A stretch of DNA of 64,000 nucleotides from Candidatus Aenigmatarchaeota archaeon (lineage in GTDB: Archaea > Aenigmatarchaeota > Aenigmatarchaeia > Aenigmatarchaeales > Aenigmatarchaeaceae): contig JAZDKZ010000006.1 in assembly GCA_043802485.1 (NCBI GenBank), positions 199,497 through 263,496 on the forward strand, read 5' to 3'. Positions 25,981 to 36,063 of this stretch are shown one piece after another; positions within the stretch are counted from its first letter, which is position 1; every line of letters begins with the position of its first letter. The position numbers and the translations under genes are program-made. The notes beneath the pieces were generated by a model. It was not told the origin of the DNA. It did not search any database and was given only the letters and a program-made list of their open reading frames with translations.

Positions 25981-26107
25981 TGCGAGGGGCCGGATTTGAA
26001 CCGACGAAGGGACTAACCCACAAGGTTTCCCATGTGCTTCTGAGCATCGCATCCTAAGCTTCGCATCCTAAGATCTTGCGCCTTAGACCAGACTTGGCTA
26101 CCCTCGC
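25981..26107 (-). tRNA. tRNA-Leu(UAG), class II, with two predicted introns (26060..26074 at 30/31; 26027..26052 at 37/38)
   Basis: It has acceptor GCGAGGG/CCCTCGC-A, D arm GCCAAGTCTGGTCTAAGGC, T arm GTCGG-TTCAAAT-CCGGC and a long variable arm. Removing the two BHB-bounded segments gives the anticodon arm CAAGG-CTTAGGA-CCTTG. Confidence 0.75.
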
Positions 26108-26143
26108 ATGAAAATAACTTTCAGATTAGAATATTTAAAAGCA

Positions 26144-35848: not shown

Positions 35849-35860
35849 GAAATCACGGAG

Positions 35861-35933
35861 CGGCTGGGACAAGACTCGAACTTGCAACCTCCTGATTAAC
35901 AGTCAGGCATTCTACCTATTGAACTACCCAGCC
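35861..35933 (-). tRNA. tRNA-Asn(GUU), copy 1
   Basis: The reverse complement is GGCTGGG-TA-GTTCAATAGGTAGAAT-G-CCTGA-CTGTTAA-TCAGG-AGGTT-GCAAG-TTCGAGT-CTTGT-CCCAGCC-G. Confidence 0.85.
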
Positions 35934-35991
35934 ATTTATGTTCACTACTAGAGTGTTTGTCGTAAACCCTAATTATTGTTAAGGTTTCGAG

Positions 35992-36063
35992 CGCCCATGG
36001 TAGGGATCGAACCTACGACCTTCTGCTTAACAGGCAGCTGCTCTACCGCTGAGCTACATGGGC
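35992..36063 (-). tRNA. tRNA-Asn(GUU), copy 2 (divergent body)
   Basis: The reverse complement is GCCCATG-TA-GCTCAGCGGTAGAGC-A-GCTGC-CTGTTAA-GCAGA-AGGTC-GTAGG-TTCGATC-CCTAC-CATGGGC-G. Confidence 0.85.

Follow-up and report, generated by a model that had tools for sequence, protein, structure and literature searches.

One 127-nt tRNA gene of a Candidatus Aenigmatarchaeota archaeon carries two alternative anticodon-loop cassettes, and we estimate at roughly 60% the probability that this single gene supplies both tRNA-Leu(UAG) and tRNA-Leu(CAG) by alternative bulge-helix-bulge (BHB) splicing of a single precursor. Four observations underlie this reading, namely, the architecture of the gene, its conservation among relatives, the covariation of its splice half-sites, and the presence of the splicing enzymes. 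Dual output is predicted from sequence, and it explains the conserved architecture better than the other readings considered here.

Gene organization and two predicted splicing routes

The gene lies on the minus strand of a 64,000-nt stretch of contig JAZDKZ010000006.1, referred to below as the window, in an assembly of 769 kb and 7 contigs (G000) from which about 11% of the genome is missing. An earlier note on this DNA had described the gene as about 40 nt longer than a class II tRNA, and the Rfam match agrees: 50 nt separate CAAG from CUUG, compared to 9 in the model, placing 41 extra nucleotides in the anticodon arm. The acceptor stem (GCGAGGG/CCCUCGC), discriminator A73 and long variable arm were read from the gene sequence; the variable arm, UGGGUUAGUCCCUUC, and the A at position 73 are those of a class II tRNA-Leu, and the gene body shares about 90% identity with the assembly's other three Leu genes. 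The gene is flanked by two ORFs, both on the minus strand. It is preceded by a single promoter-like element, the TTTAAATA box, a putative promoter, and a T-rich tract lies 3' of it. The upstream block with TTTAAATA is also found in orthologues of the same genus and of the same family. In the following list, gene nucleotide i corresponds to window coordinate 26108-i, and arrows mark predicted cuts.

25981..26107, minus strand: whole class II tRNA-Leu gene, 127 nt (Rfam RF00005, 37.3 bits, model positions 1-71)
26132..26139, minus strand: archaeal TATA-box-like element TTTAAATA, 25-32 nt 5' of gene nt 1, read directly
26075..26107, minus strand: shared 5' exon, gene nt 1-33, tRNA positions 1-30
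26077..26080, minus strand: CGCA, tRNA positions 25-28, 5' strand of the BHB central helix, covarying with its partners and directly followed by the bulge AG↓A
26060..26074, minus strand: spacer I-a, the earlier note's intron 1, 15 nt, AUCUUAGGAUGCGAA, ending in half-site UGCG-AA↓G
26053..26059, minus strand: cassette 1, G-CUUAGG, positions 31-37, anticodon UAG, G37
26046..26052, minus strand: spacer I-b (AUGCGAU), with the second half-site copy UGCG-AU↓G, 4/4 with CGCA
26039..26045, minus strand: cassette 2, G-CUCAGA, positions 31-37, anticodon CAG, A37, kept in relatives
26027..26038, minus strand: spacer I-c, AGCACAUGGGAA, with the shared 3' half-site UGGG-AA↓A
26027..26052, minus strand: canonical 37/38 intron of the UAG route, the earlier note's intron 2 (I-b, cassette 2 and I-c), 26 nt
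26046..26074, minus strand: long intron of the CAG route (I-a, cassette 1 and I-b), 29 nt
25981..26026, minus strand: shared 3' exon, positions 38-73 (A38, CCUUG, variable arm, T arm, 3' strand of the acceptor, A73), with no encoded CCA

The earlier note had drawn two introns around a UAG anticodon, and both could be reproduced. Intron 1 (26074-26060; 15 nt, gene nt 34-48) has the central helix CGCA (28-31) with UGCG (43-46), paired at 4/4, the bulges AG↓A and AA↓G, an outer helix of 3 bp and an inner helix of 2 bp. Intron 2 (26052-26027; 26 nt, gene nt 56-81) has the helix CUUA (50-53) with UGGG (76-79), including two G.U pairs, and the bulges GG↓A and AA↓A. As had been noticed, the outer helix of intron 2 is incomplete as long as intron 1 is present, G49-C83 being the only pair possible. 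Removing both segments restores a canonical cloverleaf, an 86-nt RNA with the arm CAAGG-CUUAGGA-CCUUG, which ARAGORN calls tRNA-Leu(tag); the predicted junctions are GGCGCAAG↓GCUUAGG↓ACCUUGUGG. We therefore retain the two-intron route, with introns at 30/31 and 37/38, as the very likely source of tRNA-Leu(UAG), while what was called intron 2 turned out to hold a CAG cassette. A call of Lys(CUU), obtained with ARAGORN in intron mode with one forced 43-nt intron, was rejected since it leaves no paired Leu-type anticodon stem; it is an artefact of the single-intron model.

The CAG cassette belongs to the repeat on which the earlier note had commented. The 12-nt repeat CTTAGGATGCGA is indeed present in two exact copies (26061-26072 and 26047-26058, minus strand; chance expectation, 0.01), but the repeat is better described as three 14-nt units, CUUAGGAUGCGAAG, CUUAGGAUGCGAUG and CUCAGAAGCACAUG, the third of which had been overlooked. 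In this third unit, located within intron 2, a G is followed by CUCAGA, constituting a complete cassette for positions 31-37 with the anticodon CAG. The CGCA of the 5' exon is common to both alternative 30/31 introns. With the second UGCG as its partner, predicted cuts at 33↓34 and 62↓63 excise 29 nt, with an inner helix of 7 bp (nt 35-41 with 50-56); one strand of this helix is CUUAGGA of intron 1, a genus-specific and quasi-palindromic element, and the other comes from cassette 1. Cuts at 69↓70 and 81↓82 (CUCA with UGGG, 4/4) excise a further 12 nt. The UGGG of spacer I-c can thus pair either with CUUA (two G.U) or with CUCA (one G.U), and all four half-site pairings in the gene are 4/4 with 3-nt bulges. 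Since the 12-nt intron has no inner helix in this gene, it is a relaxed, bulge-helix-loop (BHL)-like motif, a point against dual output. The product of the CAG route is an equally perfect 86-nt class II tRNA, called Leu(cag) by ARAGORN, with the predicted junctions GGCGCAAG↓GCUCAGA↓ACCUUGUGG, and the two products differ at positions 34 and 37 only. The gene thus holds two 31-37 cassettes with different anticodons, each of which can be joined in phase by a BHB half-site of its own.

Since CGCA can pair with either UGCG, and UGGG with either CUUA or CUCA, the two routes are mutually exclusive. In the mechanism that we propose, one transcription unit would contain, in order, the 5' exon, UGCG-AA↓, G31-CUUAGG37, UGCG-AU↓, G31-CUCAGA37, UGGG-AA↓ and the 3' exon; the archaeal splicing endonuclease would cut in the 3-nt bulges of the BHB motifs, and RtcB would join the exons. 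Route 1, losing 15 nt and 26 nt, would give tRNA-Leu(UAG), and route 2, losing 29 nt and 12 nt, would give tRNA-Leu(CAG), so that the competing helices would decide which 7-nt anticodon cassette stays. Both routes would presumably be used in the cell; their ratio might depend on, or even be regulated through, how stable one fold is compared to the other. When the folding ensemble is forced to contain one or the other 30/31 BHB, the energies are nearly equal, only 0.8 kcal/mol apart (-46.4 versus -45.6 kcal/mol; unconstrained, -48.6).

The unconstrained MFE fold uses the CAG-route helix, that is, CGCA with the second copy of UGCG plus the 7-bp inner helix. This would be in line with a gene that yields tRNA-Leu(CAG) only, the UAG cassette being part of a long 30/31 intron. 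We consider this highly improbable, because the assembly has no other UAG-bearing Leu gene, yet CUA makes up 8.7% of its Leu codons, because relatives that lost one cassette retained UAG, and because most of the dual genes of relatives have a 3' half-site that matches CUUA (see below). The notion that the gene is a decaying pseudogene, its BHB motifs being chance products of a local tandem repeat, is hardly credible: the repeat units are short, and truncated, decayed fragments of the dual type do exist in one relative (G017), but here all arms are intact, the TATA-like box is present, the gene is the assembly's only source of UAG, and orthologues from the genus to the class level keep the architecture with compensatory changes.

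Conservation of the cassettes and covariation of their half-sites

We compared the gene with 151 related Aenigmatarchaeota genomes representing 87 genera. In orthologues found by BLAST, from the genus to the class level, both cassettes are kept while the spacers vary freely. The earlier note had called for such a comparison and had suggested that intron 1 arose by local duplication of the anticodon-loop region. This origin did not hold up, since the intron is also present in relatives whose copy lacks CUUAGG (AUCUAAAAAUGCGAA, AUAAAAAUGCGAA and AUAUUUAAUGCGAA); as judged from these alignments, intron 1 was not born from anticodon-loop duplication in this lineage. What the repeats share, AUGCGA(A/U)G, is rather to be read as a conserved, covarying BHB half-site preceding each cassette, and the truly duplicated, old unit is, by the same comparison, the half-site together with its cassette. 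In some relatives (G094 and G147), the whole stretch from the D stem to the cassette is duplicated.

A pattern search that required two cassettes but allowed any combination of UAG and CAG found two cassettes in one Leu gene in 43/151 relatives, belonging to 31/87 genera, compared to 2 matches for the reversed pattern used as a control. Every one of the 43 pairs consisted of one UAG and one CAG cassette, with UAG first in 40 and CAG first in 3, the order being swapped in three lineages; no pair with the same anticodon twice was found among these 43 genes. Since this pattern required both cassettes, the census was repeated with a pattern that asked for a UAG cassette separated from the 3' exon by an intron of any kind, the CAG cassette not being required. 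Among the 55 real matches, 49 share their gene with a CAG cassette, and the remaining 6 comprise four with short plain introns, one with a long plain intron and one that looks decayed. The dual-cassette design would be old and widespread in Aenigmatarchaeota.

The sequences of the cassettes are constrained at the anticodon and next to it. The CAG triplet is kept despite drift at position 32 or 33 (35 CUCAG, 8 UUCAG, 3 CCCAG and 1 AUCAG). Position 37 tracks the anticodon, being G in 51/55 UAG cassettes and A in 49/55 CAG cassettes, and the stand-alone genes of the class show the matching residue (CUUAGGA and mostly CUCAGAA). One gene, L011 (G056:C6:26729-26847), combines two cassettes, CAG first and UAA second (A-CUCAGA and A-CUUAAG), in a Leu(UAA) body with the stem CAGGA/UCCUG, both cassettes being preceded by UGCG half-sites, thus indicating that the cassette design is not tied to the UAG gene.

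We then determined whether positions 25-28 covary with the four nucleotides ending two nucleotides before the second cassette. In 40 distinct sequences, this helix is 95% paired, and all four pairs show compensatory changes, the variants being CGCA/UGCG, CGCU/AGCG or GGCG, CGCC/GGCG, CAGC/GCUG, GGCU/AGCC and GGCC/GGUC. The covariation score was 0.363, compared to 0.119 for shuffles (0/500 reached 0.363) and to at most 0.046 when the partner was slid. A stricter subset consists of the genes, about half of the total, whose first cassette directly continues the stem, so that one canonical intron would suffice. Even there, the second half-site is 97% paired, with a covariation of 0.348 versus 0.081 (0/500). 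A site joining position 30 to G31 of the second cassette would have no role unless that cassette is used, and this is the strongest argument for a second route.

These data bear on the reading that the gene makes tRNA-Leu(UAG) only and that the CAG cassette and its half-site are never joined, serving instead as a folding aid, a decoy or a relic of duplication. We regard it as less likely than dual output. The shared 3' half-site does fit CUUA better than CUCA, at 4/4 in 39 versus 19 of 43 genes, and most genes short of 4/4 with CUCA have a C34.A mismatch. However, UAG-only output leaves unexplained why a half-site from position 30 to G31 covaries where the UAG cassette needs no 30/31 splice, and in the genes with a contiguous first cassette, cutting at the second half-site would destroy UAG precursors. 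Nor does it account for a CAG triplet that is retained where positions 32 and 33 vary, for the anticodon-specific position 37, for the swapped order or for the CAG and UAA combination of L011. Dual output accommodates these features.

Some relatives depart from the common layout. In the variant dual genes L073 (G094), L125, L151 and G147:C2:99344-99409, the second cassette follows either a duplicate of the 3' strand of the D stem and the 5' strand of the anticodon stem (AAUGGGACUAGG repeated) or a whole second anticodon arm; these genes have no complementary half-site before that cassette, and a BHB motif could not be drawn (2/4 pairs). In three relatives, the CAG cassette reads CCCAGA and thus has C33. 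Spacer I-c of many orthologues contains a recurrent CUGG or CCUG 3-8 nt past the CAG cassette (CUCAGAGACCUG and CUCAGAAGAUCUGG), which could form a small hairpin with C34-A35-G36 that would rival the splice helix. A candidate dual gene for CAA and GAG (L021 and L022), read by hand, proved unsupported, as its second "cassette" lacks a BHB half-site.

Leucine tRNA complement and splicing enzymes

In the assembly, 44-45 of the 46 standard archaeal anticodons could be assigned, including the C34 tRNA of each remaining box, namely, Pro, Gly, Val, Ala, Thr, Ser, Lys, Glu, Gln, Arg-AGR and Leu-UUR; the set lacks only Arg(CCG) and a stand-alone Leu(CAG). Four Leu-type 5' halves are present, those of the dual-cassette gene and of the UAA, CAA and GAG genes, with no other CAG or UAG gene in the assembly. 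CUG is the commonest Leu codon (29.9%). BHB-like segments were removed by brute force before running ARAGORN; as this was too permissive for long genes, it served as a guide only and the genes were read by hand.

A pattern-based count found stand-alone UAG or CAG genes in 0/55 dual-type genomes, compared to 26/96 others, which shows only that the dual gene is the UAG gene. A stand-alone CAG gene occurs in 5 genomes only, too few for a two-sided comparison of complementarity. According to a BLAST census of the sister genomes, the Leu set consists of the dual gene plus UAA, CAA and GAG where the dual gene is present, and of UAG plus UAA, CAA and sometimes GAG, with no CAG, where it is not. No stand-alone UAG or CAG gene was found in the Leu gene sets of the present assembly, G001, G003 (JAFGAZ01, Candidatus Aenigmatarchaeota isolate Zod_Metabat.1000) and G017, while in the family-level sisters G004, G013, G015, G019 and G020 the UAG gene has a single cassette and a CAG gene could not be detected. 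Leu(CAG) is thus dispensable in the class, and sister genomes that live with UAG and no CAG gene fit UAG-only output. Genomes without a dual gene would be expected to have two separate genes, but only G035 does, with UAG and CAG genes 370 nt apart, and this counts against simple complementarity. In G002, of the same genus, neither a UAG nor a CAG gene was found, pointing to an assembly gap. Codon usage likewise gave no signal, which again suits UAG-only output: CUG usage does not separate dual from non-dual genomes, the odds ratios of 1.0-7.4 and 1.8-3.5 overlapping, with GC3 ranging from 0.17 to 0.54 across the genomes compared. These observations temper our confidence in dual output, which we still prefer.

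The closed genome G087 (CP066684.1, 875 kb) has the dual gene plus an intact class II tRNA with a CAG anticodon at 582673-582757 (plus strand), which bears G73 and a Ser-like variable arm (CCCGAAAGGG); its presence beside the dual gene also speaks against dual output. Possible identities are an unusual Leu(CAG), a tRNA of the Ser type that reads CUG, and a gene carried by a mobile element. Its anticodon arm is repeated exactly over 16 nt at a distance of 160 nt upstream, in a region with tRNA-like scraps. In this genome, most tRNA genes are heavily interrupted, so that only 8 exceed the Rfam threshold; ARAGORN finds 12. The Leu(CAA) gene of G087 (about 757700-758130, minus strand) is interrupted at least five times, a repeated 5' end being among the interruptions.

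The assembly encodes the enzymes that the proposed splicing would require. RtcB is present (PF01139, 575 bits), as is one EndA alpha subunit of 182 aa (C7:89235-89783; matches to PF01974 and PF02778), which aligns end to end with the subunit of the M. jannaschii homotetramer. Between its catalytic Tyr and His, this EndA has a 7-residue Lys-rich insert that aligns without gaps with those of the N. equitans alpha subunit and of ARMAN-2 and that appears to be the L3 loop of Kaneta et al. According to Kaneta et al. (2018; PMC5829648), L3-bearing alpha4 EndA of DPANN archaea goes together with tRNA genes that are heavily disrupted; the enzyme described here resembles this type in its single alpha subunit and Lys-rich insert. 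It may tolerate relaxed motifs. A second, divergent EndA subunit may be encoded in the missing 11% of the genome.

Directly after the RtcB stop codon, outside the window, lies a 28-nt tRNA-Leu 3' end, UUCGCAGGUUCAAAUCCUGCCCUCCGCA (G000:C6:30642-30669, minus strand), identical to the 3' end of the Leu(GAG) gene. In G017, RtcB is followed by a longer, decayed 3' fragment of the dual-cassette type (L218), and a second decayed fragment (L091) is found on another contig. These fragments look like remnants of insertions into Leu tRNA genes.

Relation to known disrupted tRNA genes

tRNA genes with multiple, non-canonical BHB introns are known from Thermoproteales, Korarchaeum and ARMAN (Sugahara 2008 and Fujishima 2010, via PMC4390854 and PMC4090602). 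The present gene resembles them in its 4-bp helices with 3-nt bulges, in the placement of introns at 37/38 and 30/31 and in the completion of one intron's outer helix by removal of the other. In those genes, the introns are all discarded and each gene gives one tRNA, whereas here an "intron" holds an alternative anticodon cassette that is complete, conserved and served by a separate splice half-site.

A functional parallel would be the tri-split tRNA-Gly of Caldivirga maquilingensis, in which a 5' quarter and a 3' half are shared by two alternative anticodon-loop transcripts (Fujishima et al. 2009, via PMC4390854). Both systems have shared outer pieces and alternative anticodon pieces joined at BHB motifs; the Caldivirga pieces, however, are separate genes joined in trans, whereas the gene described here is one 127-nt unit with one putative promoter, so that a choice between its pieces would be alternative cis-splicing of one precursor. 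In the literature that we searched, alternative anticodon modules are known only in trans, from this tRNA-Gly. In N. equitans, two 5' halves of the split tRNA-Glu(UUC/CUC) reportedly share one 3' half, a finding ascribed to Randau et al. in 2005. There too, two isoacceptors with different residues at position 34 draw on a common exon module, but the halves are trans-spliced from distant loci, unlike the single gene here. Split and tri-split tRNAs (the former described in PMC4390854) come from separate loci that are transcribed separately, while the modules described here lie within 127 nt, with one TATA-like box and one T-rich tract. The gene resembles a tri-split tRNA in having alternative anticodon pieces, but does not belong to that family.

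We found neither alternative cis-splicing of a tRNA gene nor a design of this kind described in the literature that we searched, and we propose the term "alternative-cassette tRNA gene" for the category. Every tRNA finder and every inventory of decoding capacity assumes that one tRNA gene gives one tRNA. If dual output is real, alternative splicing, thought to be a device of eukaryotic mRNAs, would also act on archaeal tRNA precursors by means of a protein endonuclease, and isoacceptors that seem to be missing in DPANN and other intron-rich archaea might be hidden in the introns of other tRNA genes. A dual gene of this type would also be a cis-acting intermediate between ordinary intron-containing genes and trans-spliced tri-split tRNAs, and would thus bear on the evolution of fragmented tRNA genes.

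Other tRNA genes of these genomes showed features of their own. The tRNA-Ser(GGA) gene of the assembly (G000:C1:25548-25651, plus strand) has a 20-nt 30/31 intron with the helix CGCU/GGCG and the bulges AG↓A and AA↓C; a 30/31 site with such a half-site recurs in the assembly and is also found in Leu(UAA) of G002, G019 and G020 and in the single-cassette Leu(UAG) of G004. A tRNA read as Glu(UUC) (G000:C5:11839-11953, minus strand) seemingly has C33 instead of U33 (loop CCUUCGA) after removal of its BHB intron. In the window, two different tRNA-Asn(GUU) genes (72.9 and 72.8 bits) stand in tandem about 60 nt apart at 35860-36063 (minus strand), in a genome whose tRNA genes are otherwise single copy. 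Finally, tRNA-Ile(UAU) of the same assembly (C7:69848-69987) contains two introns.
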